The notes beneath the pieces are model-generated. The model was not told where the DNA came from and made no database searches. It was given only the letters and a program-made list of their open reading frames with translations. 64,000 nt of DNA, from positions 3,373 to 67,372 of the forward strand of contig JAKPTZ010000004.1 in the NCBI GenBank assembly GCA_029555025.1. The letters are read 5' to 3'. The stretch comes from Deltaproteobacteria bacterium (lineage in GTDB: Bacteria > Myxococcota_A > UBA9042 > DTJE01). Shown here piece after piece: positions 1-33,650 of this stretch. A program made the position numbers and the translations under genes. Within the stretch, counting starts at the first letter, position 1; each line of letters begins with the position of its first letter.

Positions 1-18
1 TGGGTAATCTTCAACTGG

Positions 19-1002
19 TCAAACGTCAGCATCAATTGCCCCTGCGTCATGACCGGCCACGCCGGCACCATCAACGGCCGGTCGGAGGATCCGGCACTTC
101 TCAATCAGAACCGGGTGCCAGGAACTCTTGGTCTTCCGCAAACCCTCGACGCCCATGTCCTGTTCCCGGTTCATATATACGACGTCGGGCGGCATAAGGG
201 AAGCAACGCCGCTGCAGATGGCCTGATACGCGCCCCGAACAGCCGCGTCGGCCTTTTCGAAATGAACCGTGGCCATGTCCGAATGGGTTCTGTCGCAGAT
301 GGCCATGCCCGCGAGCGCGCCGTCCACGTCAAGGCCAAAAACTTCCAATCCAAGTGGAACCGCGAATTCGATGGCACGCCGGACAGCGTCCAGTTCAAGC
401 TGCAAGTCGCGATCCCCGGCGTCATCGGCGCGATCGAGGGCCCACTTGTGGACGTAGTCCAGCAGTTCGTGCCGGCGATCGTCAGCGTTCAAGCGTACTA
501 CCCGCCATTGATGATCGCGGGAAAGCGCGGAAATATGATTGCGCTTGTGGGCAAATCGCTTTCCGGGAAGTTCGGCGAGATCCGTGCGCAGATAGATATA
601 ATCGTTGTTATCTGGGTCGGGCAGGGCGGCAAGGCCGTCCGGAACACGACTGCACCCGGGGGAATCCGGCACGTAGTCGATCGCGGGTGGCGAACCGGCA
701 CTGGCAAGCCACTCAAGACATGAATCGACCGCCCGCCTGGAATCGCCGAAACCGACCGGACAGGTGAATCGAAACTGACCGCCGGTCTCGAACCTGATGA
801 CCAGCGTGTCGTTAAGAATCGCCCACACGCTCTTGTTGTAGGACTGCCAGCAATACTGGACGGCGAACGAATACTCGCAAAGGCGCCCACCGCCAGCCTT
901 GAAAAACTTTTCAAGGAAAAGGCGGTCATCAAGTTTGAAATCGTGAAATTCGATTCGGGTCGATGGGCTCGCGGCCCCATGCCCCATGAAGGCAAGGTTC
1001 AT
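19..1002 (-). CDS. DUF2156 / lysyl-phosphatidylglycerol-synthase C-terminal-domain-like protein (stand-alone)
   Basis: 327 aa ORF with stop at 19-21. Contains the motif run FHDFKLDD..LFLEKFF..CEYSFAVQYCWQ, typical of the MprF C-terminal (LPG_synthase_C/DUF2156) family. No TM segments. Confidence 0.5.
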   Translation of the reverse strand: MNLAFMGHGAASPSTRIEFHDFKLDDRLFLEKFFKAGGGRLCEYSFAVQYCWQSYNKSVWAILNDTLVIRFETGGQFRFTCPVGFGDSRRAVDSCLEWLASAGSPPAIDYVPDSPGCSRVPDGLAALPDPDNNDYIYLRTDLAELPGKRFAHKRNHISALSRDHQWRVVRLNADDRRHELLDYVHKWALDRADDAGDRDLQLELDAVRRAIEFAVPLGLEVFGLDVDGALAGMAICDRTHSDMATVHFEKADAAVRGAYQAICSGVASLMPPDVVYMNREQDMGVEGLRKTKSSWHPVLIEKCRILRPAVDGAGVAGHDAGAIDADV

Positions 1003-1008
1003 AAATGG

Positions 1009-1446
1009 TCACCGTGGATTCCCGTCCGGAATCTTCAACAGCATCGGCACATGATCCGGCATCGGCTCGAAGCCAAGCGCCCGGTAAAATGGAACGGTTC
1101 CCGGCGCGGCGACCAGGCCGATCCACCCGAGGCCCCTGCGTCGGCCCTCGGCGGCCAGCAGACTGACAATCCTTCGCCCAAGGCCCAGCCCTCTTGATGA
1201 AGCCTGGACGACAACGTCCTGGATATACCCGTCGCTGGCCCCGTCCGAAATCATCCGTCCCATTCCAATGGTACGCCCCTGACTGTCGATGGCCGCGGCG
1301 ATCAGGAAGGAGCCATCAAGAAGGCGTCGCATGGCTGACGGATCTTCCCCGTCCCGGAACCAGCCGGCCTCGCGCAGCAGGGCAATGTGATCCGCCACGG
1401 GAATTCCGTCAACGATTTCGACCCTGACGTTTGTGACTTCGGGCAT
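1009..1446 (-). CDS. GNAT family N-acetyltransferase
   Basis: The C-terminal part of the 235 aa ORF carries a GNAT acetyl-CoA motif (IQDVVVQASSRGLGLGRRIV...FYRALGFE). The internal ATG at 1446 avoids overlap with the EF-G gene start, and the longer N-terminal extension looks spurious. Confidence 0.6.
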   Translation of the reverse strand: MPEVTNVRVEIVDGIPVADHIALLREAGWFRDGEDPSAMRRLLDGSFLIAAAIDSQGRTIGMGRMISDGASDGYIQDVVVQASSRGLGLGRRIVSLLAAEGRRRGLGWIGLVAAPGTVPFYRALGFEPMPDHVPMLLKIPDGNPR

Positions 1447-1684
1447 TTCCACGGTTAATCCGGATTCTTTGGCCACGGGAACAATAAGAACAGCACCCGG
1501 CGCCGTCAAGTGACGATCGCAGGCAATTCCGCACCGATTTTCGCGCCTGATAATCAATCCTTTCGTGCGGCTTTGGATTGACACTGCGACCGGAATCGAA
1601 TACAAAACAGCGCCCGCAAAGTTTGCGCTGGGTGGCCCGGTGTCGCCGGACCTGGTTTTGGCGTCTTTCTGAAGGTATTGAAAT

Positions 1685-3763
1685 ATGAAGATCTTTGAAC
1701 CTGGACAAATCCGCAACGTCGGTCTGTATGGACATCAGGGCTCTGGCAAGACTACGCTGGCTGAAGCGATGGTCTATCTGGGAAAGACTTCCAACAGGCT
1801 TTGCAGCGTCCAGGAAGGCAATTCGAACTTCGACTTTGATTCCGAAGAAATTCGCAAGCGCAGCTCGATTTCCGCCGCTGTCGGATACGCACAGTGGAAC
1901 AAGAAGCTTATTAACATCGTCGATGTCCCCGGCGACACCAATTTCGCCGCCGAATCGGTCATGGCCGTGATGGGCACCGACCTTGCGCTTATCGTGGTCA
2001 GCGCCGTGGACGGCGTGCAGGTTGGAACCGAAAAGGCCATCGAACTGCTTCTTGAAAACGAAATTCCGATGATGGTCGTGGTGACAAAGGTCGATCGCGA
2101 GCGCGCCGACTACGGCAAGATCGTGGCCGACCTTCAGAACCGTTATGGCAACGCCGTCGTTCCGATGGCCCTTCCTACCGGCAATGAATCCAATTTCAAG
2201 GGCATCGTTGACCTGGTCAACAATTGCGCCTTCACGTATGCCGATCCGATGAACGGCGCCAAGGGCGACGTCCCCGCGGCAATGGCTTCCGCCGTTTCCG
2301 ACGCCAGGGAACCCCTGGTTGAAAAGCTTGCCGAACAGGACGACGACCTGATGGAAAAGTATTTCGGCGAAGGCGAGCTTTCGACCGAAGATCTTCGCAC
2401 CGCACTGACGGTCGGGTTCAAGAAGGCCGGCGTCATCCCCGTTCTGCCAGTCAACGCGGCAACGGCCATGGGCGTCGATTTCCTGATGAACGTCATTGCA
2501 GGTCACGGCCCGTCGCCGCTCGACCGCAAGGGCCTGAAGGTTCAGAAGGGCGATGCCACGACCGATCTTGTCATCGATCCCGACGGCAAGTTCATGGCTT
2601 ACGTCTTCAAGAGCATCGTCGATTTGCAGGCCGGCCGCATCAGCGTTTTCCGCGTCGCATCCGGTTCCATCGCCCAGGATGGCCAGTTCGTGAATCTTTC
2701 CACCGGCGCCAAGGAGCGCTTCGGCAGCCTTGTCAAGCTGCTTGGAAAGAAGCAGGAACAGGTTGAAAAGGCGGTATGCGGCGACATCGTCGCCGTCGTG
2801 AAGCTGAAGGAAACCAATTCCGGCCACACGATCGGTGCCGAGGACGGCATGGGTACGCTGGTTCTGCCGCCGCTGCCGACCCCGTGCATTTCGTTCGCAG
2901 TCAAGCCGAAGAACACCAGCGATGAAGACAAGCTTTCGGCAGCAATCCAGAAGATCGTCGAGGAAGACCCGGGGCTGCGCCTGTCCCGCGACGACGAATC
3001 GAAGGAATTCCTTGTCAGCGGACTTGGCCAGGTTCACGTTCAGTCGGCAGTCGATAAGCTGAAGAACAAGTTCAACGTCGATGTCGAACTGAAGCTGCCC
3101 AGGATTCCGTACCGCGAAACGATTCGCGGCGCCGCGAAGAACGTCGAAGGAAAGCATAAGAAGCAGTCCGGCGGTCGTGGCCAGTTCGGCGTCTGCTATA
3201 TCGACATGGGACCGAACGTCCGCGGAAGCGGATTCGAGTTCGAGGATGCAATTTTCGGCGGGTCGATTCCGAAGCAGTTCATTCCGCCGATCAAGAAGGG
3301 CATGGAAGATTGCATGACCCGTGGCGTTGTCGCCGGTTACCCCGTCGTCGATATCAAGGTCAAGCTGATCGACGGAAAGTATCATGACGTCGATTCCGAC
3401 GCCCGTTCGTTCGAAATGGCCGGTTCGCGCGGCTTCAAGGCGGCCTTCAAGCTTTGCACCCCGATCATTCTGGAACCGATCATGGAGCTGACCATCGTCG
3501 TGCCCGAGGAGTATCAGGGCACGGTCATGGGCGACATCAGCAGCCGCCGCGGCAGGATCATGGGTGGCGACGCGGCCAACGGCAAGCAGATTGTCAAGGC
3601 CACGGTTCCGATGTCCGAATGTCAGACCTACGCGTCCGACCTTCGTTCGATGACGTCGGATCGCGGCTCGTTCTCGATGGTGTTTGATCACTACGAGGAA
3701 CTGCCGCCGAACCTGACCGAAAAGCTGATCGCCGAAGCGAAGCTGGAAGAAGACGAAGAATAG
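1685..3763 (+). CDS. Elongation factor G family translational GTPase (EF-G paralogue)
   Basis: 692 aa with a G-domain (GHQGSGKTT, DVPGDTNF, TKVDR) followed by EF-G domains II-V. The N-terminus differs from canonical FusA (AHIDAGKTT), so it is called as an EF-G paralogue. Confidence 0.85.
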   Translation: MKIFEPGQIRNVGLYGHQGSGKTTLAEAMVYLGKTSNRLCSVQEGNSNFDFDSEEIRKRSSISAAVGYAQWNKKLINIVDVPGDTNFAAESVMAVMGTDLALIVVSAVDGVQVGTEKAIELLLENEIPMMVVVTKVDRERADYGKIVADLQNRYGNAVVPMALPTGNESNFKGIVDLVNNCAFTYADPMNGAKGDVPAAMASAVSDAREPLVEKLAEQDDDLMEKYFGEGELSTEDLRTALTVGFKKAGVIPVLPVNAATAMGVDFLMNVIAGHGPSPLDRKGLKVQKGDATTDLVIDPDGKFMAYVFKSIVDLQAGRISVFRVASGSIAQDGQFVNLSTGAKERFGSLVKLLGKKQEQVEKAVCGDIVAVVKLKETNSGHTIGAEDGMGTLVLPPLPTPCISFAVKPKNTSDEDKLSAAIQKIVEEDPGLRLSRDDESKEFLVSGLGQVHVQSAVDKLKNKFNVDVELKLPRIPYRETIRGAAKNVEGKHKKQSGGRGQFGVCYIDMGPNVRGSGFEFEDAIFGGSIPKQFIPPIKKGMEDCMTRGVVAGYPVVDIKVKLIDGKYHDVDSDARSFEMAGSRGFKAAFKLCTPIILEPIMELTIVVPEEYQGTVMGDISSRRGRIMGGDAANGKQIVKATVPMSECQTYASDLRSMTSDRGSFSMVFDHYEELPPNLTEKLIAEAKLEEDEE

Positions 3764-3776
3764 GTCTTCTGGGGGC

Positions 3777-3800
3777 GGGCGAATTTTCATTCGCCCGTAC
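3777..3800 (+). repeat. REP-like palindromic element, type A (GGGCGAAT-TTTC-ATTCGCCC-GTAC)
   Basis: Perfect 8-bp stem with a 4-nt loop and a GTAC tail, 14 bp after the EF-G stop in a convergent intergenic region. The same motif recurs at 21.1, 21.3, 23.7 and 33.6 kb. Confidence 0.7.
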
Positions 3801-6505: not shown

Positions 6506-9500
6506 TTGCCCGCCGGATCTGGCGGGATGACGCGCTTTGCGAGGTATCCCATGGACAGTCCACGCCCGGCGATTTCGATCAGGACTTCAAGGTTTGCCAG
6601 CGCATGGGGGCTTGACGCGCTCTCGCCAGCAAGGTTTCCCTGGCCGGTTGACTGGGACTTCAGCGAGCTTTCCGGCGACCAGGTGTCCGAAAGCAGCATC
6701 AGGTTACAGTTCAAGCTTCGGTCCGGAATGCATGCGGTCCGCTTCACGCGTGATTTTTCGCTTGATATCGACATTGCCGACGGCTCGTCGGCATCCGTTG
6801 AACTGGTTACCGGACGGGCGCGGCCGCCTGTTTCCGGTGGGGCCGCGGGCCAGGATCCCGAAGGATCCCCCGGGGCGGCGGGCGACGGCACCGACCAGGC
6901 AGGCTGTTCGGTCGTTGACCTGGTCAGCGTCAGCTTTGACAGTCCCCTGGTTATCCGCAACGTTTTCGGTGCCGTCCGCGGGGCGCACACTCTGTTCGAT
7001 AACATCGAGGTGAAGGAGTTCCTGAACAGGCTGCTTGCGGTCACCGGGCGGTTTGCAGTCGATCTGGAGTCAGCAGCCAGCGCCGCATCGGAGAGGTTCG
7101 TCCTCGTTCGCAAGCTTTTTGACCAGGCGGCCGGCCGCGTCCCGGAAGTCGCCGACATGGCAAGAAAGGGTTTTGACCGCCTTGGAAGCGCCTTCGCGGC
7201 ACGACTTGGCGAGCCGGTCTCGCTGGAGATATCGGCGGTCAGTTTCAGGCTGGCCCCGGCTCCTGACTGGGCTGGATCGGATTGTCCCATTCTTGTTCCT
7301 TCCATTACCGGTTCGTTCGTGCTGTCGCATACCGGCGCCCGGGCCAGATTTGAGGACATCGAGGTTCCATCAATACTTCTGCCGCGGTTCAATTCGAATC
7401 TGACCGACCTTCTGAAGGGCAACGTTATGGTTGGCGGGGCCTTCAAGAAGCAGGCTGTCGGAGTTTCCAACCTCATGCTCGATGTGGCTGGAATGCTTGG
7501 AGCCTTTCAGGGAACCATCGATGCGACGGTCGCCCTGCCGGCCCTGCGCACGTCCTGGCGCCAGGCCGATCGCTCTGATGTTGTCGCCGAACTGTGGACC
7601 GGATCGTCACAGGCGAAGATTCACGCCGCATTCCAGGTTGCGAAAGAGGGTGATGATGCCGTATTCGACGTGTCCCAACTCTCGATCGGCGAGCCGGATT
7701 CCCGGCGCAGTTTCAAGCTTCAGGCCGGGCTGACCGTTTTCGGCCTGTTTCGCGACGGATTGTCCATGCCGACGGCGGTTCGGGGAACATTGCGCCAGAC
7801 AAACAGGGGAAGTCTTCCGGTAACGTATCTTCGTCTGGAAGGCCGGAATCCGCTTCTGAAGTCCGGCAACGCGATGATCATGCGCATCGACGAACTGAAG
7901 ACCGGTGGTCGGGTGGATTTTGGATTTTCCGCCAGTGGCAACCCTGTTTTTGAACTTCCTGATCGGGATTTCGTTCTTCAATCGGTCTTCAGTGTCCCGG
8001 ATCAGTGTTTCGGGCCGGCCGGAACAATTGACCTCTTTGGCGCAATCAGGCGTGGTAATCTGAAGGCCTGCGTGACGGCGGTTCCGGGCTCCGGGTTCGA
8101 CGTGCAGCTTTCCGGCTGTTTCCCGGCGGCTTTCAAGATTCAGACCGACCTTCGCCATGTGCCCGAACTCGATATCGAGCCGGGTCGCCTGGAGATATCC
8201 GGCAGCGGAACCGTGACCGCCGAACTGGGGGTCGGCGTGGCCATGCCCGCAATGAAGGCCTCGGCCATTTCGTTTTCACCTCGCGGCAAGGTTGGGCTGA
8301 CGCTTGCCCACCTGCAGGTTCGTGATCCCCAGCGCAAGGTAAAGGCACTGTCCCCCATAACGATTGGAGGTACGGTCCGTGAAGGCGTGATCGCCGCGGA
8401 TGGAGATGGCGATGTTGGCCTGGATCTTGAGTGGCGTCTTGAGACGCCCAGAATTGAAATCTGTTCGGACCGATGCCGCCAGGTGTCCGATTTGCCGCTG
8501 CGCATGATGACCGGCCGTCAGACGGTGCGGGTCAGTCCGGGCGGCCGAATCAGTCTTGCGGGGAACGAAGGGTCGCTTGTGCGCCCCGATCTTCTGAAGG
8601 CGCTGGCCAGTCCCTTCAACAATGCCGGGACGATTCTGGAACTGCTCGATGACGATGAACTGGTTTACGGTTCACTTGATTCGCTGGCGCAACTAGCGGC
8701 ACTGTTCAACCGTCCGGTGGCGGATCGGCTCGTCGCGGTTCGGGACTGGATTATCGGGGTTCGAAGCCACGCAAGGGCCGTCGGCGTCGCAAAGCCCGGG
8801 GATCTGCTGGACATGGCGGTCCTTTCCAGGCTGGTTTCACGCATCATCGTCGGCGACGAGTCAATTTCTGACGAACTGCGGCCTTTGCTGTCATCCCTTG
8901 GCGACGGCCAGGGTTTCGACGACAAGGCGGCGCGCATGCTGATGATCCGTCACCGCCCGGACATCACCGACACTTACGAATTCGACCTGATTGTTTCCTG
9001 GATAGGGATTCTTACGACCCCGGTCGATCATTACAATCGTGCCGTCCCGGTCAACCTTCCGCCGGTTTCGGATGATCCTTCCGTGGCCGCCGCCATCAGG
9101 GACATACCTGCCGCATCAACCCTTTATAAGTGGTTTTCCGGTGGCGAGCCGGCCCAGGATAAGGTCGAGACGGTCGTCCGCCTGGCCCCGATGATGTTCA
9201 TCGAGCAGCTTGAATACGTGCTTTCCGGGATGAAGGGGACTGCTTTCAACCAGGAACGCGCCATGCTTCAGTACGCCCTGTCCGCCAAGAGGGCCATCAG
9301 CAGGGCGGTCAACCCCGGCGAACTCGCGAACATGTACATCGTCCCACGCGCCTCCGTCATTGCCGGATTCCTTGGCGACATAATAGGGCCGATCCCGGGT
9401 ATTGACGGCCCGGGGGCTGAAGTACCACCACCGGCGCCGCTTGGCCCCCGAGACATCGCCGAAATCCTGGAAATCGGCCTCGGTTCGCAGGTTCAGGGCG

Positions 9501-11477: not shown

Positions 11478-12599
11478 ATGGCTCCCTGTAACGACAAGGT
11501 TCACCGCGTAATCAACTTCTCTGCCGGGCCCGCTGGTCTTCCCCTTGCAGCGCTTGAAAAGGCGCGTGACGAACTGCTGGACTTCGAAGGCAGCGGGATG
11601 TCCATCATGGAAATGTCCCACAGGGGCAAGATTTACGACAGGGTGCACACCGAAGCGATTAACCTTACGCGGGAATTGATGGGAATTCCCGATGACTACG
11701 TCGTTCTTTTCCTGCAGGGCGGCGCGAACCTGCAGTTCGGCATGCTTCCGATGAACGTCCTTGGCAATGGGAAGAAGGCTGATTACATCATTTCCGGTCA
11801 CTGGGCGAAATCGGCGTACAAGGAAGCCGTCAAGGTCGCCGGCGCGGAAAACGTCAGGGCCATCGCATCGACGGAATCCGAGGATTTTCGCAGGCTTCCC
11901 AGGCCGTCTGAATACCGGATTAACGACGACGCCGAGTACGTTCACATCTGCACCAACAACACAATTTACGGCACCCAGTACCATTACGTTCCAGAAACCG
12001 GCAAGGTTCCACTTGTCGCGGATATGTCATCGGACATCATGTGGTCGCCGGTCGATGTGAAGAAGTACGCGATGTTCTATGCCGGCGCCCAGAAGAACCT
12101 GGGTCCGTCCGGGCTGGTTCTGGTCGTGATGCACAAGGACTTCTTGGCGAAGTGCCGCGAAGACCTTCCGAACATGCTCCAGTACAAGGTTCACGCGGAC
12201 AAGAACAGCCTGTTCAACACCCCGCCGACCTTCGCGATTTACCTGCTGAAGAACGTTCTCGAATACAACAAGTCGATTGGTGGTCTTGCCGCCATTCGCG
12301 CGAACAACCTGAAGAAGGGCGAACTGCTTTACGGCTTCATCGACGCGAACGCCGACTACTATCGTCCGTGGGTCACGGTCAAGGAAGACCGTTCGGTCAT
12401 GAACGTCGATTTCCACCTGCCGAATGAAACGCTCGACGCCCAGTTCGTTGCCGAAGGCCAGAAGGCGGGCATGGTCGGCCTGAAGGGATACCGCACGATG
12501 GGCGGCATCCGCGTGTCGATGTACAACGCGGTCACGGTTGCGAATATCGAGACCCTGGTCGGCTTCATGGACGAATTCCGCAAGCGCAACCCAGGTTGA
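11478..12599 (+). CDS. serC: Phosphoserine aminotransferase
   Basis: Full-length match to the SerC family (NFSAGPA, GGANLQF, active-site region around KN). GGAGG RBS at 11468-11472 before the ATG at 11478. Confidence 0.9.
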   Translation: MAPCNDKVHRVINFSAGPAGLPLAALEKARDELLDFEGSGMSIMEMSHRGKIYDRVHTEAINLTRELMGIPDDYVVLFLQGGANLQFGMLPMNVLGNGKKADYIISGHWAKSAYKEAVKVAGAENVRAIASTESEDFRRLPRPSEYRINDDAEYVHICTNNTIYGTQYHYVPETGKVPLVADMSSDIMWSPVDVKKYAMFYAGAQKNLGPSGLVLVVMHKDFLAKCREDLPNMLQYKVHADKNSLFNTPPTFAIYLLKNVLEYNKSIGGLAAIRANNLKKGELLYGFIDANADYYRPWVTVKEDRSVMNVDFHLPNETLDAQFVAEGQKAGMVGLKGYRTMGGIRVSMYNAVTVANIETLVGFMDEFRKRNPG

Positions 12600-12624
12600 A
12601 ACACCAGCCCTATCTGCCTATAAT
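12596..12624 (+). promoter_or_regulatory. Sigma70-like promoter TTGAAA-17-TATAAT upstream of the S1 protease gene
   Basis: TTGAAA at 12596-12601, a 17-nt spacer, then TATAAT at 12619-12624. It lies 44 bp upstream of the ATG at 12668. Confidence 0.5.
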
Positions 12625-12667
12625 CCGACCGGCTGTATCTTTCGAACTTCCTTCAGGTTGTGAAAAA

Positions 12668-14695
12668 ATGTCCATCCGCAATACGCTCTTTCCCGTGGCT
12701 GCGCTGTTGCTTCTTGCTTCCTGTGAATTCGTGTCCGGCGAGACAGCCGCCGTCCAGTCCCCGATTATCGGCGGGACTGCGGTGACCGATGGTTCGTGGC
12801 CCGCCGTCGGGGGGATCGTTCTTTATCCCGATTCGATGTGTTCCGGGACGCTGATTTCACCGCGCGTCGTCGTGACCGCGGCCCACTGCGTCAAGGGCGA
12901 AAATCCAACCACGTTCGTGCTCGGTTACGATATGGAAAACGGCACGGAGTACGCCGTCCAGGAAGCCATCTACAACCCGGACTACGATGCCGGCGGGTAC
13001 AACGACCCCGGATCCGGCGACGTTGCAGTCCTTGTCCTTGAAGAGCGCATCACCGGCATCACGCCGGCGCGGCTTTTTACCGGCGATTTCACGGCATTCA
13101 ATGATCAGTCGATCGTTTTCGTCGGATACGGCAAGCGTGATGTCTATCAGCCGCTATATGGCAAGAAGTACCAGGTAACGCTGACGATCAAGGACATCGA
13201 TGATTACGGTTTCTGGAATTACACGAACCAGTCAAATGTGAAGAATACGTGCGGCGGGGATTCGGGTGGCCCGGGATTTGTCAGTTATAACGGAGAGTAT
13301 TACATTGGTGGGTTCGTATCTTCCGGCGATGAATACTGCGTCCAGGACGGATACAACATGCGTGCCGACAGCAACGCCGAGTGGATTCTTTCGCAGGTCG
13401 AGAAATACGATCCCGGTTTCCTTGGCGAACCGGATTGCGGCAACGATATCTGTGAGTACGGCGAGGACTCCGGCAACTGCGCCGAAGACTGCCCGGTGGT
13501 CGAGCCTGAATGCGGCAACGATGTCTGCGAGGATGGCGAGACCGAAGCGAATTGCGCCGATGACTGCGCAACCGGGCCGGATCCGATCTGGACCGAGTGC
13601 GGAAGCCAGGGCGAATGTCCCGCCGGCCAGTTCTGCATCCAGGTCAGCCAGAACGCCTATTACTGCACCATCAGTTGCGATGACCTGGAACTGGGCGGGG
13701 GATGCGGCTATCAGGATATGGCATGCGTCGCGCTGCAGGATGGCGGCGGCGCTTGCGTCCCGGCCGATATCGAATGCGGTGACGGGCTTTGCGAGTACGG
13801 CGAAACCGCCGACTCCTGCCAGTCCGATTGCGCCATCGATTGCGGCGACCTGAGCTACGAGGGCTGCTGCGACGGCACGCAGGCTGTTTACTGCAACAAT
13901 GGCCAGTTCCGGCGGGTCGAGTGCGGTCCAGACTACACCTGCGGGTGGGTCGTTGATGGCGGTTCGTCGTATTACTTCTGCACCGACGGCGCGGCCTCGG
14001 CCGATCCGTCCGGGACATTCCCGATGTCCTGCGAAGGCTACATTTTTGATTCGTGCGGCAACGGCGTTTGCGACAACGATGAAACCGAATCAAGCTGCCC
14101 TGGCGACTGCAAGGTCGTCGATTCCTGCGGCAACGACAAGTGCGACAACGGCGAGACCGTAGTGACGTGCCCGGAGGACTGCAAGGTCGTCGATTCCTGC
14201 GGCAACAACAAGTGCGACAACGGCGAGACCGTAGTGACGTGCCCGGAGGACTGCACGACCGTTGACGAGGATTGCGGCAACGAAGTGTGCGACGACTGGG
14301 AATCGAATCTGTCGTGCCCGATCGATTGTCCGTTGTTACCGGACAACTGCGGTAACGGCACATGCGACAACGACGAGAACACGTCCACTTGCCCGCAGGA
14401 CTGCCCGGTTCAGGATCCCGAATGTGGCGACACCATCTGCGAGAGCCCCGAGGGCTGCCGCGATTGTCCGCAGGATTGCGGCGAGTGCCCGGTTGGCGAA
14501 GACGTTATTCAGGCCCAGGACACGATCACTGCGGACGATTCCGGCCAGACCGAAAGCGACACGGTTGGCGTTGCATCCGGCGGGTGCAGTTCGACTGGAG
14601 CCAATGGGGCCGGTACGGGTACTGCAGGTTTGCTTCTTACCGTGCTTCTCGCCATGACGTCCATCATTGTTCGGCGTTCGAGGCGGTTCGCATGA
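12668..14695 (+). CDS. Secreted trypsin-like (S1) serine protease with myxo-type Cys-rich repeats and MYXO-CTERM-like sorting tail
   Basis: Signal peptide MSIRNTLFPVAALLLLASC. S1 motifs TAAHC and GDSGGP. About ten CGN..C.NGET..CP.DC repeats. C-terminus GGCSSTGANGAGTG plus a hydrophobic helix plus RRSRR. Confidence 0.8.
   Translation: MSIRNTLFPVAALLLLASCEFVSGETAAVQSPIIGGTAVTDGSWPAVGGIVLYPDSMCSGTLISPRVVVTAAHCVKGENPTTFVLGYDMENGTEYAVQEAIYNPDYDAGGYNDPGSGDVAVLVLEERITGITPARLFTGDFTAFNDQSIVFVGYGKRDVYQPLYGKKYQVTLTIKDIDDYGFWNYTNQSNVKNTCGGDSGGPGFVSYNGEYYIGGFVSSGDEYCVQDGYNMRADSNAEWILSQVEKYDPGFLGEPDCGNDICEYGEDSGNCAEDCPVVEPECGNDVCEDGETEANCADDCATGPDPIWTECGSQGECPAGQFCIQVSQNAYYCTISCDDLELGGGCGYQDMACVALQDGGGACVPADIECGDGLCEYGETADSCQSDCAIDCGDLSYEGCCDGTQAVYCNNGQFRRVECGPDYTCGWVVDGGSSYYFCTDGAASADPSGTFPMSCEGYIFDSCGNGVCDNDETESSCPGDCKVVDSCGNDKCDNGETVVTCPEDCKVVDSCGNNKCDNGETVVTCPEDCTTVDEDCGNEVCDDWESNLSCPIDCPLLPDNCGNGTCDNDENTSTCPQDCPVQDPECGDTICESPEGCRDCPQDCGECPVGEDVIQAQDTITADDSGQTESDTVGVASGGCSSTGANGAGTGTAGLLLTVLLAMTSIIVRRSRRFA
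14105..14248 (+). repeat. Tandem 72-bp direct repeat (2 near-identical copies) inside the S1 protease gene
   Basis: The sequence gactgcaaggtcgtcgattcctgcggcaac...gtgacgtgcccggag is repeated at 14105 and 14177. It encodes CGN(D/N)KCDNGETVVTCPEDCKVVDS twice. Confidence 0.85.
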
Positions 14696-18284: not shown

Positions 18285-21044
18285 ATGAAGTCAGTAATCG
18301 TTTCAGGAGTCGCCTTTTCGCTGCTTTTCGCGGCATGCGGGGAAACAAAAATGAAGGATGAAAAATCCGGCGCCTCGGAAGTCACCGTTAATCCGGTGAA
18401 GAATCCGGCCATTGAAACGTTCGATCTGCCGAATGGCCTGAAGGTGTTCATGGTCGTTGACAAGTCGGCGCCGCTGGTCGCCGTCGATATCAACTACCAC
18501 GTCGGTTCCCGGAACGAACGTCCCGGCAAGACCGGGTTCGCGCACCTGTTTGAACACATGATGTTCCAGGGATCAAAACATTACGACGACGATTACTTCA
18601 AGCCCCTGCAGGACGTGGGCGGCCAGGTCAACGGCGCGACCAGCACCGACCGGACCCGTTACTGGGAAATCGTCCCGTCGGCATGGCTCGAGCGGGCGTT
18701 GTGGCTTGAGTCCGACCGCATGGCGTACCTGCTCGACGCGATGACCCAGGAACGGCTGGACAACCAGAAGTCAGTAGTTTCGAACGAGCGTCGCCAGAAC
18801 TATGACAACAGGCCGTACGGGACGGTGTGGGAAAAGATGGCGGCAGCCCTTTACCCGCCCCAGCACCCATATTCCTGGCTTACGATCGGTTCGCTCGCCG
18901 ATATCAACGCAGCGACCCGCGAGGACGTGGCCGAGTTCTTCAAGACCTGGTACACGCCGAACAACGCAACGCTCGCCATCGTCGGCGACATTGACATTCA
19001 GGCCACGAAGGAGCTTGTGACGAAGTATTTCGGCGCGATTCCACCCGGGCCGGCCGTTTCGGCGGTTGGTAAGTGGCCGGTTCGCCTTGAGTCCGACATC
19101 GTCCTGGATATCAAGGATCGCGTGCAGCTTCCGCGTACTTACATCACATGGCCGACGGTCGGGTTCTTTGATGCCGACGAGGCCGCCCTGGACGTGTTCG
19201 GGATGGTTTTTGGCGGTGGCCGGACGTCGCGGCTTTACCAGGATCTGGTCTATACGCGGCAGATCGCCCAGGACGCCATGGCGGGCCAGCGCAGCAGCCA
19301 GATCGCCGGCGTTTTCGACATCATGCTGACCCCGCGTCCGGGCGTGGATCCGCTTGAACTCGAAAAGGCGGCGCTTGAAATCCTGGACGAAATGCTGAAA
19401 AACGGCATCACCGAGGACGAGATGTCCCGCGCCAGGACTTCAATTGCTTCATCCTTCATACGCGACATGGAAAATATCGGCGGTTTTGGCGGCCTGGCCG
19501 ACCGGATCAACGCCTATCAGCACATGCTCGGCAGGCCGGACGGTTTTGCGGCCGACCTGCAGAGGTACCTTGACCTTGACAGGGGCGACGTAACCAGGGT
19601 TGCCGCCCGTTACCTGTCGGGCGCCAGGGTGATTGCCCGCGTGCTTCCCGCCGGGGAGAACGCGCCCACCGGCCCCGATGCCGCCGATCGCACGGCGCTT
19701 CCTGGAAAGGGAACCGATCGTGCTTTCGATCTGCCGGATCGCCAGGTTTTTGAGCTGGAGAACGGGCTTCAGGTCGTGCTGGTCCAGCAGTCCCGCGTGC
19801 CGCTTGTTGGATTCGATCTGATCGTTCCAGGCGGCAACGGTCTTGATCCGGCCGGCAGGGAAGGGCTGGCGTCGCTTACGGCGGCCATGCTCAGTGAAGG
19901 TTGCGCGGACATGGACTCCGAGACCTTCGCGAAGCGGATCGAGGCCCTGGGCGCGTCCCTTAACGCGGATGCGGACGTGGATTGCTGGTTCGTCGGCGGG
20001 TCCGCCGTCACGACGACTTTCCGGGATCTGCTCGATCTGGCCTTCAAGATGGTTTCCGCCCCGACAATGGATCCGGCGGAACTGGAACGCCAGAGGGCCG
20101 AGCGCCTGACCCGCCTGACCCAGCTTCTTGACATGCCGCAGTACACTGCCATGGTTGCGGCCCAGAGGGCCGTGTATGGCGACCATCCGTACGGGCGTCC
20201 GTCCGCGGGAACCCCGGAATCCGTCAAGGCAATTACGATACAGGATGTCCGCGCGACCTGGGCCGACTGGTTCCAGCCGAAGAATGCGGTTCTGATCGTC
20301 GTCGGTGACATCGACCGGGACACCCTGGCACGTTACCTGAACGAAACCGCGTCCGCGTGGAAGAACGACGGGGAAGTCCCCGATGCCCGCCTTGCGCCGT
20401 CGAAACCTGTTGCCGCAACGGTCAACGTGGTTGACATGCCTGGCGCCCATCAGTCGGTCATCATCGTCGGCGGTCCCGCGCCGGCACGCCGCGGCACTGA
20501 CGTCGCGACGCTGAATGTCCTGAATTCAACGATCGGCGGCAAGTTCGTGTCACGCTTGAACCTGAACCTGCGCGAGGACAAGGGTTACACCTATGGAGCC
20601 CGTTCCGCGTTCGAAATGCACGGTTGGGGCGGCATGTTCCAGGCTTCCGCGTCAGTCGCGACCGATGTTACCGGGGCCGCCACGGCCGAAATCCTTCGCG
20701 AACTGAACGAGATCGGCTCGACGCGGCCGGTCACCCCGGAGGAATTGAAGTATTCAGTCGACGCGATCGTGAACGGTTACAGCCAGCGGTTCAGTTCGAT
20801 CGAGAAGGTGGCTTCGGAGCTGCTTGAAACGTACCTGTACGGACTTGGCGCCGACGATATCGAACTCTATCCGTCCCAGGTCGCCACGGTCACGACCGAT
20901 CAGGTCACCGCAGCCGCCAGAACCCATCTGGCCCCGGAATACCTTTCCATCACCATCGCCGGCGACGCGGGCAAGGTCGTTCCCCAGCTTCGCCAGATCC
21001 TTGGCGACCGCCCCATCAACATCATCAAGCGCACCACTCCGTAA
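18285..21044 (+). CDS. M16 family zinc peptidase (tandem M16 halves), lipoprotein
   Basis: Lipoprotein signal SLLFAAC. Inverzincin motif HLFEHMMFQGS and downstream E. 919 aa, consistent with two fused M16 units. AAGGA RBS. Confidence 0.85.
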   Translation: MKSVIVSGVAFSLLFAACGETKMKDEKSGASEVTVNPVKNPAIETFDLPNGLKVFMVVDKSAPLVAVDINYHVGSRNERPGKTGFAHLFEHMMFQGSKHYDDDYFKPLQDVGGQVNGATSTDRTRYWEIVPSAWLERALWLESDRMAYLLDAMTQERLDNQKSVVSNERRQNYDNRPYGTVWEKMAAALYPPQHPYSWLTIGSLADINAATREDVAEFFKTWYTPNNATLAIVGDIDIQATKELVTKYFGAIPPGPAVSAVGKWPVRLESDIVLDIKDRVQLPRTYITWPTVGFFDADEAALDVFGMVFGGGRTSRLYQDLVYTRQIAQDAMAGQRSSQIAGVFDIMLTPRPGVDPLELEKAALEILDEMLKNGITEDEMSRARTSIASSFIRDMENIGGFGGLADRINAYQHMLGRPDGFAADLQRYLDLDRGDVTRVAARYLSGARVIARVLPAGENAPTGPDAADRTALPGKGTDRAFDLPDRQVFELENGLQVVLVQQSRVPLVGFDLIVPGGNGLDPAGREGLASLTAAMLSEGCADMDSETFAKRIEALGASLNADADVDCWFVGGSAVTTTFRDLLDLAFKMVSAPTMDPAELERQRAERLTRLTQLLDMPQYTAMVAAQRAVYGDHPYGRPSAGTPESVKAITIQDVRATWADWFQPKNAVLIVVGDIDRDTLARYLNETASAWKNDGEVPDARLAPSKPVAATVNVVDMPGAHQSVIIVGGPAPARRGTDVATLNVLNSTIGGKFVSRLNLNLREDKGYTYGARSAFEMHGWGGMFQASASVATDVTGAATAEILRELNEIGSTRPVTPEELKYSVDAIVNGYSQRFSSIEKVASELLETYLYGLGADDIELYPSQVATVTTDQVTAAARTHLAPEYLSITIAGDAGKVVPQLRQILGDRPINIIKRTTP

Positions 21045-21090
21045 CGGCCCGCCTGCGTGAAGATTCGTCCGTCTCGATCCTGCCCGATCC

Positions 21091-21114
21091 GTACGGGCGA
21101 ATGAAAATTCGCCC
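21091..21114 (-). repeat. REP-like element type A (reverse orientation: GTAC-GGGCGAAT-GAAA-ATTCGCCC)
   Basis: Exact reverse complement of the 3777 element. It is embedded in a longer conserved unit cgatccgtacgggcgaatgaaaattcgcccg. Confidence 0.7.
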
Positions 21115-21260
21115 GTGGGGCCCTTCGCTTCGCTCAGGGATCGAGGAGCTGCCGTACGCCCCCCGTCTGACGCAGTCGTGCCTGTGGCCGGCCATGAAGT
21201 GTCCGGTTCGAGGGGCCTCACCGGAGCACTTATGGGCCGGCCCGATCCGCCCTACGATCC

Positions 21261-21284
21261 GTACGGGCGAATGAAAATTCGCCC
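21261..21284 (-). repeat. REP-like element type A (reverse orientation), second copy
   Basis: Identical 31-bp unit to the copy at 21091. It lies between the M16 peptidase gene and copA. Confidence 0.7.
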
Positions 21285-21297
21285 GCCTGCTTTCCTT

Positions 21298-21320
21298 GTA
21301 CGGGCGGATTACATCCGCCC
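21298..21320 (-). repeat. REP-like element type B (GTAC-GGGCGGAT-TAC-ATCCGCCC)
   Basis: Variant with a one-nt stem change (GGGCGGAT) and a 3-nt loop. It sits directly beside the type A copy. Confidence 0.65.
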
Positions 21321-21444
21321 GCTGCGGTCGAGCAGAATGACTTCCATCGCGCCCGATGCTTCTGTAAGTGTGGATTGACTTCCTGGTCAACAGGACAAAT
21401 TCTATCCTCGTTCATTGGGCGGAACGGCCCCGGGATGTGCAGTG

Positions 21445-23667
21445 ATGAACGGAAAGAAAATTGATCTGCCAGTAATCGGGATGTCTTGCGCACACTGCGC
21501 GGCCACCGTTGAAAAGACCCTGGTCAGGGATGTGCCCGGCGTGTCCTCTGCTGTGGTGAATCTGGCAACTGAAAGTGTCGCCGTGACATTCGACGAACGT
21601 ACTACTTCACCGCAGGCGATGGCCGACGCCGTTGCCAGGGCGGGTTTCAAGCTGGTACTGCCCAGCCTGGACGACGTCGAAACGAACGCGCGCAGGCAAA
21701 ACGAGCGAAGGATCAGGCGGGAGCTTCTGGTCGGAATTGTTTTCGCATTACCCCTGCTCGTCCTTTCAATGGGTTCCGACTTCGGCCTTCTGGGCGGGCT
21801 GTCGCATGCCCCCTGGCTGGGATGGATTTACCTGACGCTTGCAACCCCGGTACAGTTCATCACTGGAGCATCCTTTTACATCGGAGCCTATCGGGCCGTC
21901 AGGAACCGCGCCCTGGATATGGACGTGCTGGTCGCCCTGGGCTCGACCGTCGCCTATGTCTATTCCCTGGTGCTTCTGGTGACACCCGGCCACGAACACC
22001 TGTACTTTGAAACGTCCGCCATGATTGTCGTGCTGATAAAGGTCGGCAAGATGCTCGAGGCCAGATCCCGAGCGGTCGCTGCACGGTCGATCAAGAGCCT
22101 TCTTGATTCAGCGCCTGATACCGCGTCGGTTATCGGCCCGGACGGCCAGGAGCGCCCCATCGCTGTCGCCGCACTTTCCGTTGGTGATCTTGTAATGGTT
22201 CGTCCCGGCGAAAAGGTTCCGGTTGACGGAACTGTCGTTTCCGGAGCCTCGGCCGTCGATGAAAGCATGGTGACCGGCGAGCCGATTCCCGTCGATAAGG
22301 TTCCCGGGGACATTGTATTTGGCGGAACAATGAATGCGGAAGGGCTCCTTACCGTCCGTGCGACCGGTGTCGGCGCGGATTCCCTGCTGGCCCGCATAGG
22401 CGCAATGGTCGCCAGGGCCCAGGCCAGCAAGGCCCCCATCCAGCGCTTCGCCGATCGGGTTGCCGCCGTTTTCGTCCCGGTAATCCTGGTAACGGCCGCC
22501 GTCACCTTCACTTTCTGGATGCTCTGGACCGACGGCGATATCCAGCTTGCAGTAATGCGTTCAATCGCCGTGCTGGTCATCGCGTGCCCCTGTGCGATGG
22601 GACTTGCCACGCCGATGGCCGTCATGGTCGGAATGGGGAGGGGCGCCCGCGGCGGAATCCTGTTCAGGGACGCAGCCACAATGGAGATGCTTCACAAGGT
22701 CACAGCAATCGCCTTCGACAAGACCGGCACCTTGACCCAGGGCCGTCCCGAGATCGCCGCATGGGTTTCGACCCCTGGATGGGAACAGACTGGGCTTGAA
22801 CTTGCCGCCGGCGCGGAATCCGGTTCCGGTCACCCGCTTGCACAGGCCGTGGTTCGGTATGCCCGCAGCCTGGATGTCTCCGTTCCGCCACCCTCCGACT
22901 TCCAGGCGACCCCTGGCATCGGTGTTCGCGCGACGGTTTCCGAACATGCCGTCCAGGTTGGCAACCCGCGTCGTCTTGACGGCATCGCTATCCCCGACTG
23001 GATGGCCGACAGGATGCACGGGCTTGAATCCATGGGCCATTCCGTCCTGGCCGTGTTGGTTGACGGCGAAACGGTCGGTCTTTTCTTCCTGGCCGATCAG
23101 CTTCGACCGACCGCCGTCGGCGCCGTCGCCGAGATGCGGGAAATGGGACTCAACCTTTCCATGCTGACCGGCGACAACGCATCCGCTGCCGCCCGGGTCG
23201 CCGCCGCTGCTGGAATCGCGGTTCACCAGTCCGGCATGATGCCCGCCGACAAAGAGGCCGCCATCGCCGAACTTCAGCAAGGCGGCCATCGGGTCGCCAT
23301 GGTCGGCGACGGCATCAACGACACGCCCGCACTGGCGCGGGCCGATATCGGAATCGCCCCCGGCGCCGGGGCCGCCGCCGCAATCGAAACCGCCGACGTG
23401 ACACTTGTGGGCAGCGACCTGACCCTGGTTGCCCGCGCCGTGAAGCTGTCCCGCGCAACCATCCGCAAGATCCGCCAGAACCTTTTCTGGGCTTTCTTCT
23501 TCAACGTACTGTGCGTCCCAATCGCCGCGGGCGTCTTCCACGGCGTCGAATGGATGCCCGCCATGCTGCGCGACCTTAACCCCATGCTCGCCGCCACCGC
23601 CATGGCCTTTTCCGACATCATCGTCATCGGCAACAGCCTCCGCCTGAACCACGTCCGGCTGCCTTGA
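21445..23667 (+). CDS. copA: Copper-translocating P1B-type ATPase
   Basis: N-terminal HMA domain with GMSCAHC. TM CPC motif ([11 protein letters not shown]), DKTGTLT phosphorylation site, [10 protein letters not shown] hinge. The ATG at 21445 is preferred over the upstream extension. Confidence 0.9.
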
Positions 23668-23690
23668 TCTTCCCTTGGCCTTGTGCAGGC

Positions 23691-23714
23691 GGGCGAATTC
23701 TCATTCGCCCGTAC
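23691..23714 (+). repeat. REP-like element type A (GGGCGAAT-TCTC-ATTCGCCC-GTAC)
   Basis: Begins 24 bp after the copA stop. Same stem as the 3777 copy, with loop TCTC. Confidence 0.7.
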
Positions 23715-23770
23715 GGATAGCGGGCAGGGAAGCGATGGGCGCGATGGACGGCATCCTGCTCGACCGCGGC

Positions 23771-23793
23771 GGGCGGATGTAATCCGCCCGTAC
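23771..23793 (+). repeat. REP-like element type B (GGGCGGAT-GTA-ATCCGCCC-GTACAAG)
   Basis: First of two identical 32-bp units cgcggcgggcggatgtaatccgcccgtacaag. Confidence 0.7.
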
Positions 23794-23841
23794 AAGGAAG
23801 GGATGCAGGCAGGTAGAACTGGCAACTTGCAGTGCCGCGGC

Positions 23842-23864
23842 GGGCGGATGTAATCCGCCCGTAC
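23842..23864 (+). repeat. REP-like element type B, second copy
   Basis: Identical to the 23771 unit. A half-element GGGCGAAT at 23904-23911 abuts the stop codon of the M2 peptidase gene. Confidence 0.7.
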
Positions 23865-23911
23865 AAGAGCAACGGCGCACAACGCCCAGACAAAGCCGGA
23901 GGCGGGCGAAT

Positions 23912-31781: not shown

Positions 31782-31860
31782 CGGGGCGTAGCGCAGCCTG
31801 GTTTAGCGCACTTGACTGGGGGTCAAGGAGTCGCTGGTTCGAATCCAGTCGCCCCGACCA
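31782..31860 (+). tRNA. tRNA-Pro (anticodon GGG), CCA encoded
   Basis: Manual cloverleaf. Acceptor CGGGGCG/CGCCCCG, U8A9, D-stem GCGC/GCGC. Anticodon stem CTTGA/TCAAG with loop CTGGGGG (anticodon GGG). T-arm GCTGG-TTCGAAT-CCAGT. Discriminator A plus CCA. Confidence 0.85.
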
Positions 31861-32943: not shown

Positions 32944-33552
32944 ATGAAAGGTATCCTGGTAATCATCAGCGCGCCGTCGGGCGCCGGCAAGTCAACCATC
33001 ATCCGGCAGATTCTTGGGAACGATCCAAACTGTCGCTTCGCCATTTCGCATACGACCCGCCAGCCAAGGGCAGGGGAGAAGGACGGCGTCGATTACTACT
33101 TCGTCGGCAGGGATGAGTTTCAGTCCATGGTGGCGAACGACAGGTTCGCGGAATGGGCCGTGGTCCATTCGAATTTTTATGGTACTTCGCTGGCCGAGGT
33201 CGAGCGGCTTTCAAGCCAGGGCATCGATGTCGTGTTCGAGGTCGATTACCAGGGCGGGCGGGCCCTTATGCGCCGTTTCCCGGATGCGGCAAGCATCTTC
33301 GTATTGCCACCGTCGATGGCCGAGGTGAAGCGGCGCCTGACCGATCGCGGCACGGACGATGCCGAAACCATCGAGATGCGCCTGCAGAACGCAAGGATTG
33401 AGATTGCGACCGCCGGGGAATACCGGTACATCGTCGTCAACGATGATCTGGATCGGGCGGTTTCCCAGGTCGGCGACGTGATAAGGGTCGAAAGACTGCG
33501 GTCGATAAACCGCGCGGCGATGATTCGCGACCTTGTCGCCGAGAAGGTTTAG
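32944..33552 (+). CDS. gmk: Guanylate kinase
   Basis: P-loop SAPSGAGKST, and full-length similarity to the Gmk family across 202 aa. Confidence 0.9.
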   Translation: MKGILVIISAPSGAGKSTIIRQILGNDPNCRFAISHTTRQPRAGEKDGVDYYFVGRDEFQSMVANDRFAEWAVVHSNFYGTSLAEVERLSSQGIDVVFEVDYQGGRALMRRFPDAASIFVLPPSMAEVKRRLTDRGTDDAETIEMRLQNARIEIATAGEYRYIVVNDDLDRAVSQVGDVIRVERLRSINRAAMIRDLVAEKV

Positions 33553-33572
33553 CGGGCGAATTTGATTGGAGC

Positions 33573-33596
33573 GGGCGAATTTTCATTCGCCCTTAC
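33573..33596 (+). repeat. REP-like element type A (GGGCGAAT-TTTC-ATTCGCCC-TTAC) flanked by two partial copies
   Basis: Located between gmk and gltX. A half copy GGGCGAAT lies at 33553-33560. A degenerate hairpin GGGCGAAT-CAT-ATTCGGCC lies at 33609-33627. Confidence 0.65.
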
Positions 33597-33650
33597 AGAT
33601 CGGGGAGCGGGCGAATCATATTCGGCCGTTTTTGTGTTTCAGGAGGTTCA

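Follow-up and report, generated by a model that had tools for sequence, protein, structure and literature searches.

The closest described relatives of the repeats reported here are the REPs that accompany TnpA-REP enzymes of subclass 2.4, which corresponds to Bertels group 4 and carries the motifs NH[IFV]H, WQ and YIxNNP (Quentin et al., 2018; PMC6006769). The hosts of this subclass are Cyanobacteria, Bacteroidetes and members of various other phyla, and its REPs, which are termed 'long' or 'double foot', have a stem base of three G-C pairs (PMC6006769). Unique to subclass 2.4 is the presence of REPs in frame within tnpA-REP itself, between the HUH and Tyr motifs, an arrangement that is predominant but not universal (PMC6006769). 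Table S1 of that study lists GTAGGGGCGAATTGCATTCGCCC and GTACGGGCGAATAGCATTCGCCC for Cytophaga hutchinsonii, and GTAGGGGCGAAAAATTTTTCGCCCCTAC is listed in the supplementary table for another host (PMC6006769). GTAG-tagged REPs have also been reported from Cyanobacteria and Planctomycetes, and REPtrons described, by Di Nocera et al. (2013; PMC3733652). A search of the literature for the motif as a string returned one unrelated yeast paper only, and the RepRanger paper holds nothing specific to the motif or the lineage.

The repeats considered here lie in a 64-kb stretch of DNA, the whole of which we refer to as the window. Their stem, GGGCGAAT/ATTCGCCC, is identical to that of the subclass 2.4 REPs of C. 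hutchinsonii, with three G-C pairs at its base, a variable loop of 3–4 nt and a foot placed directly at the stem, and the GTAC form of this foot is among those already listed. The associated RAYT has the motifs NHVH and YIxNNP and the REPtron arrangement is alike. The window repeats differ from those of subclass 2.4 in that the host is a MAG labelled Myxococcota by NCBI, GTAC and GTAA predominate over GTAG as the foot, which the window copies have on one side only, and the conspecific RAYT has no REP within its ORF and has WH in place of WQ; there is also a second subfamily, B (GGGCGGAT-GTA-ATCCGCCC, with a conserved 31-nt unit), and there are composite units of 65–125 nt. The preliminary description of the window called the family previously unannotated, which may hold for this lineage, but the repeat type is catalogued with TnpA-REP subclass 2.4 (PMC6006769); what is new is the host lineage, the GTAC/GTAA foot, type B and the longer embedding units. 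We assign a probability of roughly 0.9 to the conclusion that the window hairpins are REPs of the type cognate to the HUH/Y1 enzymes of TnpA-REP/RAYT subclass 2.4 (Bertels group 4), and the observations on which it is built are those of hairpin anatomy, dispersion, extragenic bias, a REPtron, conserved catalytic motifs and strain polymorphism.

Other systems offer partial parallels. As with the REP/BIME elements of E. coli and their RayT (TnpA-REP subclass 2.2, PDB 4ER8), the window repeats are extragenic palindromes that lie 3′ of genes and are clustered, with a 5′ foot of the kind read by an HUH/Y1 enzyme whose gene lies between inverted REPs; E. coli REPs nevertheless exceed them in length and have a GTAG foot and bulged stems, and the RAYT described below, P0001, is distant from RayT 4ER8 (E = 0.0014). 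The Pseudomonas REPINs, which Bertels and Rainey are said to have described in 2011 with RAYTs of groups 2 and 3, are likewise non-autonomous, RAYT-associated hairpin repeats whose occupancy varies between strains, but a REPIN is a pair of inverted REPs replicated as one unit, whereas the window copies are single or head-to-tail. IS608-type elements have subterminal hairpins and a TTAC target. The likeness to IS200/IS605 elements of this type is that an HUH/Y1 enzyme recognizes an imperfect hairpin in ssDNA plus a nearby tetranucleotide, and that an additional copy in a near-identical strain (L245, below) sits directly 3′ of TTAC; unlike these elements, the hairpins have no element body and are dispersed alone, and the enzyme is a low-copy class-2 (Y---NP) RAYT and not an IS200 TnpA (Y---Q).

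Hairpin repeats in the window

Eight exact matches to the pattern GGGCGRAT-N3-4-ATYCGCCC are present in the window, with hairpin starts at 3777, 21095, 21265, 21302, 23691, 23771, 23842 and 33573, and none was found in 100 dinucleotide-preserving shuffles. Three of these copies had been placed at 21091, 21261 and 21298, positions that agree with ours when counted from the GTAC foot. A fuzzy search of the window added one degenerate copy (33609–33627) and two half copies (23904 and 33554). The family is therefore real, and an initial count of at least seven full and three partial copies becomes eight full copies, one (33609–33627) that is nearly full with a single stem mismatch, and two true halves (23904 and 33554).

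The REP unit is 24–31 nt in size and consists of a G+C-rich stem, GGGCG[A/G]AT, of 8–9 bp, a variable loop of 3–4 nt and a tetranucleotide foot. Two subfamilies emerged from reading and from a repeat finder, type A having the form GC-GGGCGAAT-TTTC/TCTC-ATTCGCCC-GTAC-GG (five copies in the window) and type B the form CCGC[A/G]GC-GGGCGGAT-GTA-ATCCGCCC-GTACAAG (three copies). The window hairpins have folding energies of −17.8 to −23.2 kcal/mol (z = −3.3 to −5.4) and are of the size and form of REPs, which are imperfect palindromes of 20–40 nt with a stable stem-loop. The features are as follows (those without a strand have none assigned).

3777..3800, minus strand: REP type A, the hairpin GGGCGAATTTTCATTCGCCC then GTAC on the plus strand, foot-first as 5′-GTAC-hairpin on the minus strand; between the genes for EF-G (stop 3763) and the TPR protein (stop 3824), which converge
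21091..21114, plus strand: REP type A, foot-first GTAC-GGGCGAATGAAAATTCGCCC; starts 47 nt past the M16 peptidase stop codon
21168..21287, plus strand: composite unit of about 125 nt, in which a conserved leader is followed by a long hairpin (about 56 nt, 21186–21241) and then a type A REP (21261–21284)
21298..21320, plus strand: REP type B, foot-first GTAC-GGGCGGATTACATCCGCCC; within the left arm (21281–21362) of an 82-nt inverted repeat
23691..23714, minus strand: REP type A, loop TCTC, then GTAC; starts 24 nt past the ATPase stop codon
23771..23793, minus strand: REP type B, then GTAC(AAG); within the right arm (23729–23810) of the 82-nt inverted repeat
23842..23864, minus strand: REP type B, then GTAC(AAG); in tandem, 71 nt after the 23771 copy
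23904..23911: half copy GGGCGAAT, which abuts the convergent M2/M3 peptidase gene at its stop codon
33554..33561: half copy GGGCGAAT, starting two bases past the gmk stop codon
33573..33596, minus strand: REP type A, then TTAC, which is a GTAA foot on the minus strand, as in the RAYT-flanking copies of contig L193
33609..33627: degenerate REP GGGCGAATCATATTCGGCC (loop of 3 nt, a single mismatch in the stem), then GTTTTTGTGTTT; 24 nt before the gltX start codon

The flanking genes were identified with Pfam as those for EF-G, a TPR protein, an M16 peptidase, a copper P-type ATPase, an M2/M3 peptidase, gmk and gltX. All of the window copies fall within four intergenic spacers, namely that between the convergent EF-G and TPR genes, that from the M16 peptidase gene to the copper P-type ATPase gene, that between the convergent ATPase and M2/M3 peptidase genes, and that from gmk to gltX, so that the intergenic placement given in the preliminary description stands. 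The further claim that the copies sit at the 3′ ends of genes is right for most of them, which lie 14–47 nt downstream of stop codons, but the cluster at 21091–21320, which is 3′ of the M16 peptidase gene, is also 5′ of the ATPase gene. Similarly, a conserved GTAC tail is present in most window copies but the 33573 copy ends in TTAC, and the conserved units first put at 31–32 bp do exist but extend further, to about 125 nt (21168–21287) and 82 nt (21281–21362 and 23729–23810). Copies are embedded in longer composite units of 65–125 nt, and about ten further copies of the composite unit at 21168–21287, with 90–96 % identity, occur in metagenome loci of the window lineage. The clusters are arranged head-to-tail, with three copies in one orientation at 21091–21320 and three at 23691–23864; no inverted REP doublet of the kind that defines a REPIN is present in the window, where copies are single or in tandem. 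Rfam searches of the whole window at gathering thresholds matched a tRNA alone and gave no match for the repeats, and none was found for 21000–24000 at E ≤ 1.

Dispersal of the repeats and the associated RAYT

The window gltX is encoded identically in four MAGs (GCA_029564055.1, GCA_029561695.1, GCA_035350495.1 and GCA_035363895.1), all of which NCBI labels 'Myxococcota bacterium'. A metagenome scan for types A and B gave at least 114 loci, corresponding to at least 82 non-redundant groups, at least 63 of which have a G+C fraction of 0.56–0.64 and together hold at least 133 hairpins. One of these loci (L174) is 100 % identical to window positions 1–2216. Among the matches listed, 81 loci measure 5 kb or more, and 71 of these have a tetranucleotide correlation with the window profile of r ≥ 0.9, and the median r with the window is −0.06 for loci of other taxa. 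Since lineage-like metagenome loci carry the repeats, the family is dispersed through the genome of the window organism; it is not confined to this one region (at least 114 metagenome loci), and it is commoner in the window than chance alone would give (none in the 100 window shuffles), so that neither of the two outcomes that had been named as counting against it was seen. The copies are strongly depleted in ORFs, with 36 % lying inside a deliberately permissive set of ORFs spanning 92 % of bases (p about 1e-107).

Across the copies compared, the loop is variable while the single-sided foot is conserved. Among the matches listed the 3′ tails of type A are TTAC (46/110), GTAC (41/110) and CTAC (9/110), and those of type B are GTAC in 53 of 56 cases. 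When compared with the canonical GT[AG]G, the foot in this lineage is mostly GTAC or GTAA, and it is GTAG in relatives. Occupancy also differs between genomes. The near-identical strain L245 has an extra 28-nt type A copy in the gmk–gltX spacer, directly 3′ of the TTAC of the resident copy, and the same spacer is 19, 61 and 24 nt long and free of REPs in the relatives L252, L253 and L254, whose gmk genes are 89, 76 and 67 % identical to that of the window; L253 has GTAG-footed GGGCGAAT hairpins in other spacers. These differences between strains and relatives, which came from the comparison of orthologous spacers proposed at the outset, indicate that REP occupancy is lineage- and site-specific, as expected of mobile or duplicating elements.

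No RAYT gene is present in the 64-kb window, as had been noted before, and a wider search located one in the same species, flanked by arrays of the same repeat. Three of the at least 114 metagenome loci listed hold a RAYT homologue. In L193, which comes from the JGI sample that also gave L174 and which matches the ENA contig L236 exactly, a 178-aa ORF (P0001) forms a REPtron in which it lies between eight upstream and five downstream REP copies that are mutually inverted. The upstream copies are tandem GTAA/GTAC-GGGCGAATGA[A/G]AATTCGCCC units with a 47-nt period, and the downstream copies are GGGCGAATTTTCATTCGCCC-TTAC units in the opposite orientation, repeated every 42 nt. The genes beside the REPtron (ffh, dapA and gatDE) are 94.7–98.3 % identical at the nucleotide level to DAOSFR010000031 of GCA_035363895.1, a MAG that also holds the gltX contig of the window, and we conclude from this identity that the REPtron belongs to the species of the window; the tetranucleotide correlation of the REPtron contigs with the window is 0.94–0.96. 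A REPtron is accordingly present at the level of the species (L193 and L236), and outside the window. P0001 is recorded from the JGI and ENA contigs only and not from the NCBI MAGs that carry the window genes, and the ffh site of sister strains has a degenerate B-like hairpin instead of a REPtron. For type B no REPtron was found. The dispersed hairpins and the matching RAYT REPtron in a conspecific contig bear out the REP/BIME-like identity first proposed from the window alone.

P0001 is, judged from its sequence, a RAYT. It matches the NCBIfam model NF047646 (REP-associated tyrosine transposase) with an E-value of 3.5e-15 and 56.2 bits, below the 80-bit cut-off; this is an equivalog model, apparently centred on proteobacterial RayT, and P0001 is clearly homologous to its RAYTs, though not clearly an equivalog. 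Its alignment with E. coli TnpA-REP (4ER8) takes in an HUH motif, MPNHVHGIF, as well as a Tyr motif, TYIMNNPVKW, and both of the subclass 2.4 motifs NH[IFV]H and YIxNNP are present. The W motif, which lies upstream of the Tyr helix, is WH (VWHRNYWEH) where subclass 2.4 has WQ, a minor deviation that L049 shares. Homologues of P0001 are named 'REP element-mobilizing transposase RayT' in the source databases. One homologue, P0002 of L164, is 79 % identical to P0001, has WQ (VWQRNYWDH) and lies in a REPtron with the same REP, its gene being flanked by nine GTAC-footed copies on one side and two CTAC-tailed (GTAG-footed) copies on the other. An in-frame internal REP is absent from P0001 and P0002 and present in the homologues of L011, L029, L037, L049, L050, L086, L113, L159, L248 and L251. 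Three picked homologues from other phyla, in L248, L249 (Desulfovermiculus halophilus) and L251, are 44–50 % identical to P0001, and their genes are flanked by GTAG-GGGCGAA[T/A]-loop-...CGCCC hairpins; those of L248 and L251 are also interrupted. We considered a co-variation of WQ or WH with the fourth base of the foot and dropped it, because L049 has WH with GTAG/GTAC and L164 has WQ with GTAC/GTAG.

The pairing of motif and RAYT extends to other taxa. A scan of one genome per species for the pattern plus GTAC, for which we estimate that about nine matches would be expected under uniform base composition, gave at least 115 loci; those listed are from Cyanobacteria, Bacteroidota, Planctomycetota, Bacillota, candidate phyla and others. 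A blastn search of the window against the 115 listed genome loci gave no match, and the genome of the window is thus not among them. Among the matches listed, GTAG lies directly at the stem on the free side of the pattern in 76 of 130, and there are 44 different loop sequences. Such a combination of tetranucleotide foot, G+C-rich stem and unconstrained loop is the anatomy of a REP. Unbiased clustering of ORFs revealed a recurrent small neighbour protein that overlaps the motif in 8 of the 115 listed loci, where the motif is inside the RAYT ORF between the HUH and Tyr motifs and is translated, for example, as STGELQFAPT, often with degenerate tandem copies. These eight proteins match NF047646 with E-values of 1e-17 to 1e-9, and weakly match Pfam Y1_Tnp. 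A phmmer search with an E. coli RayT query sequence that itself gave no Pfam match found the RAYT cluster, which was then independently verified; a regular-expression search of the loci for the RAYT motifs NPxRA and YxWSS yielded nothing useful, these patterns being too strict. No recurrent neighbour family other than RAYT was found among 229 listed loci.

Proposed mechanism and alternative explanations

By analogy with E. coli TnpA-REP and the IS200/IS605 enzymes (PMC6006769), a RAYT dimer would bind the hairpin on ssDNA, for example on the lagging-strand template, read the foot and then, through its HUH/Tyr site, cut and rejoin nearby. Such cutting and rejoining would duplicate, delete or move units, and this would explain the clusters, the tandem arrays and the gain and loss of copies between strains. 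The enzyme would be supplied from outside the window, a conspecific contig having a RAYT bracketed by inverted REP arrays. Copies inserted downstream of genes would be transcribed into stable 3′ hairpins, which may buffer mRNA decay without being intrinsic terminators; secondary effects of this kind on mRNA 3′ ends are plausible.

The last point invites the question of whether the hairpins are RNA elements in the first place, intrinsic terminators or stabilizers that arose separately at each 3′ end and have nothing to do with a transposase. The location of most copies 14–47 nt past stop codons, the stability of the predicted RNA hairpins and the T-rich run that follows the degenerate 33609 copy are all in keeping with such an origin. 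It is very improbable, however, given that near-identical units of 24–31 nt are spread, in either orientation, over dozens of unlinked loci, that some copies separate convergent genes and others precede the ATPase gene, and that RAYT genes are bracketed by this same sequence. No REP copy was called a terminator when the four spacers were scanned, and all eight full copies lack a T-tract, in agreement with the early remark that these are not simple terminators. A secondary role in RNA stability is compatible with the assignment of the hairpins as REPs. A second kind of non-mobile function, that of operators for a dimeric DNA-binding regulator such as one controlling a metal-responsive regulon around the copper ATPase, is suggested by half-sites that form a perfect 8-bp inverted repeat and by the two clusters that flank the copper P-type ATPase gene. 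We regard it as barely credible, since EF-G and gmk are followed by the same units, which are also present in at least 63 other places, tandem arrays of five to nine copies lie beside RAYT genes, and a variable loop with a conserved one-sided foot fits recognition of a hairpin and not of a duplex operator; most copies are moreover downstream of genes and not in promoters, and a scan found no promoter-like site in the spacers that flank the ATPase gene.

A mobile origin of a different sort would make the repeats remnants or MITEs of a DDE insertion sequence, or ends of IS200/IS605 elements, with no dependence on a RAYT. Short, dispersed, intergenic repeats and longer composite units of 65–125 nt might be expected of either, and the subterminal hairpins and TTAC target of IS608-type elements recall the hairpins and TTAC tails seen here. 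This too is highly unlikely. Terminal inverted repeats with target-site duplications were not observed, none of the copies examined has a DDE transposase, an IS200 TnpA or a TnpB as its neighbour, and the one recurrent neighbour family, RAYT, has the class-2 Y---NP motif and not the Y---Q of IS200.

The ATPase gene between REP clusters and wider implications

The 82-nt inverted repeat, whose arms (21281–21362 and 23729–23810) are 87 % complementary, brackets the ATPase gene, and the 2.6-kb copper P-type ATPase gene as a whole lies between inverted REP clusters with their feet pointing outward, a geometry like that of REPtron arrays. Window positions 21045–23911, which comprise both REP clusters and the ATPase gene, are missing at the orthologous junction of the M16 and M2/M3 peptidase genes of a related MAG; in L253 these two genes are 15 nt apart with neither an ATPase gene nor REPs between them. 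The next best homologue of the ATPase in our search is 59 % identical, whereas relatives of gmk are at 89, 76 and 67 %. These observations suggest that the ATPase gene is an acquired cassette with the REP clusters as its junctions. A more general proposal, that RAYT/REP pairs can capture or mobilize cargo genes as a REP-bounded composite element and that, in parallel, the foot specificity of the RAYT of this lineage may have changed from GTAG to GTA[C/A], is one that we put forward as speculation and think unlikely to be correct.

We note several consequences. An active-looking REP/RAYT system is present outside the well-studied Proteobacteria, in an uncultured lineage of anaerobic digesters and activated sludge that is labelled Myxococcota. 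For annotation, the units of 24–31 nt and the composites of 65–125 nt are to be masked or labelled as REPs and not as terminators or operators. The REPs probably also explain contig breaks in the MAGs, because the REPtron contigs break off within arrays of the repeat. Across phyla the GGGCGAA stem is conserved and the foot varies, being GTAG, GTAC or GTAA, which provides a natural series for the study of how RAYTs read the foot, and the ATPase cassette between REP clusters offers a testable instance of gene gain that REPs either mark or mediate. The main value of the family lies in annotation and in this natural series of foot variants, with the cassette as the only lead to something less ordinary.

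REP elements at sites that differ between strains or relatives

In one strain of the same species, a RAYT gene with its REP arrays (a REPtron) adjoins ffh and is represented by two contigs (L193, 1-1200; L236, 1-870). At this site the sister strains (L237-L242) carry, upstream of ffh, unrelated sequence and a degenerate B-like hairpin in place of the REPtron, with flanking genes that are 95-98 % identical between the REPtron strain and its sisters; in L242 the position is taken by a reverse-transcriptase (RVT_1) ORF. Both REPtron contigs end within REP arrays, which suggests that these arrays break assemblies.

Within the window itself, REP clusters in inverted orientation, their feet facing outward, stand on both sides of a copper P-type ATPase gene:

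21045-23911, REP-bracketed copper P-type ATPase segment
21281-21362 and 23729-23810, arms of an 82-nt inverted repeat flanking the ATPase gene, 87 % complementary

A related MAG (L253, 1150-1230) has the genes for the M16 and M2/M3 peptidases side by side, separated by a gap of 15 nt that contains neither the ATPase gene nor REPs, and the next best homologue of the window ATPase is only 59 % identical to it. The segment has the look of a cassette that was acquired, with REPs at its junctions.

A difference of a single copy is seen in the gmk-gltX spacer, where a closely related strain (L245, 1722-1849) has one additional type A REP of 28 nt relative to window positions 33552-33651, located immediately 3′ of the resident copy's TTAC. 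The same spacer contains a further, imperfect element:

33609-33640, degenerate REP with one stem mismatch, plus GTTTTTGTGTTT

Here GTTTTTGTGTTT comes after the degenerate REP and lies just 5′ of the gltX ribosome-binding site, and the two together might act as a weak terminator for gmk; a consensus terminator scan did not call this element.

A composite repeat and other features of the window

One type A REP forms the last part of a larger repeat, in which a conserved leader (beginning TGACGCAGTCGTGCC) is followed by a long, imperfect hairpin (about 56 nt) and then by the REP:

21168-21287, composite repeat of about 125 nt
L162, L226, L219, L128, L206, L185, L174 and L204, database loci that also contain it

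About 10 more copies, with 90-96 % identity, are present among the matches listed, and nothing in Rfam matched the composite repeat of the window. The only Rfam or ARAGORN match in the window is a single tRNA-Pro (anticodon GGG; 31782-31860). Separately, the ORF at 12596-14695 includes at least eight coding tandem repeats of 72-75 nt each (13426-14479) that encode Cys-rich modules (CGNxxCDNGET...C), from which its product is predicted to be a repeat-domain secreted or surface protein.

REP elements within RAYT genes and in other taxa

In Bacteroidota and other loci the part of the RAYT gene that separates the HUH motif from the Tyr motif contains an in-frame REP hairpin, as previously reported for subclass 2.4 (Quentin et al., 2018; PMC6006769):

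L011, L029, L037, L050, L086, L113, L049 and L159, RAYT ORFs with an internal REP

The internal REPs are translated as peptides such as STGELQFAPT or VGANHDSP and reach several degenerate tandem copies, the ORF of L086 being enlarged to 424 aa. In many cyanobacterial loci among the matches listed the REP is embedded in heptamer tandem repeats (e.g. AGGAGTC or AGAAGTC), and Tychonema bourrellyi has a regular array:

L040, 3723-3981, six units of GTAG-GGGCGAATGGCCATTCGCCC-GTAC arranged head to tail, period 47 nt

Closer to the window, L253, a related genus-level MAG whose gmk is 76 % identical, carries at 3056-3296 and 8398-8977 the GGGCGAAT stem of the window's lineage. Its foot there is GTAG, the canonical one; in the window's lineage it is GTAC or GTAA. 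The foot has changed inside one clade.
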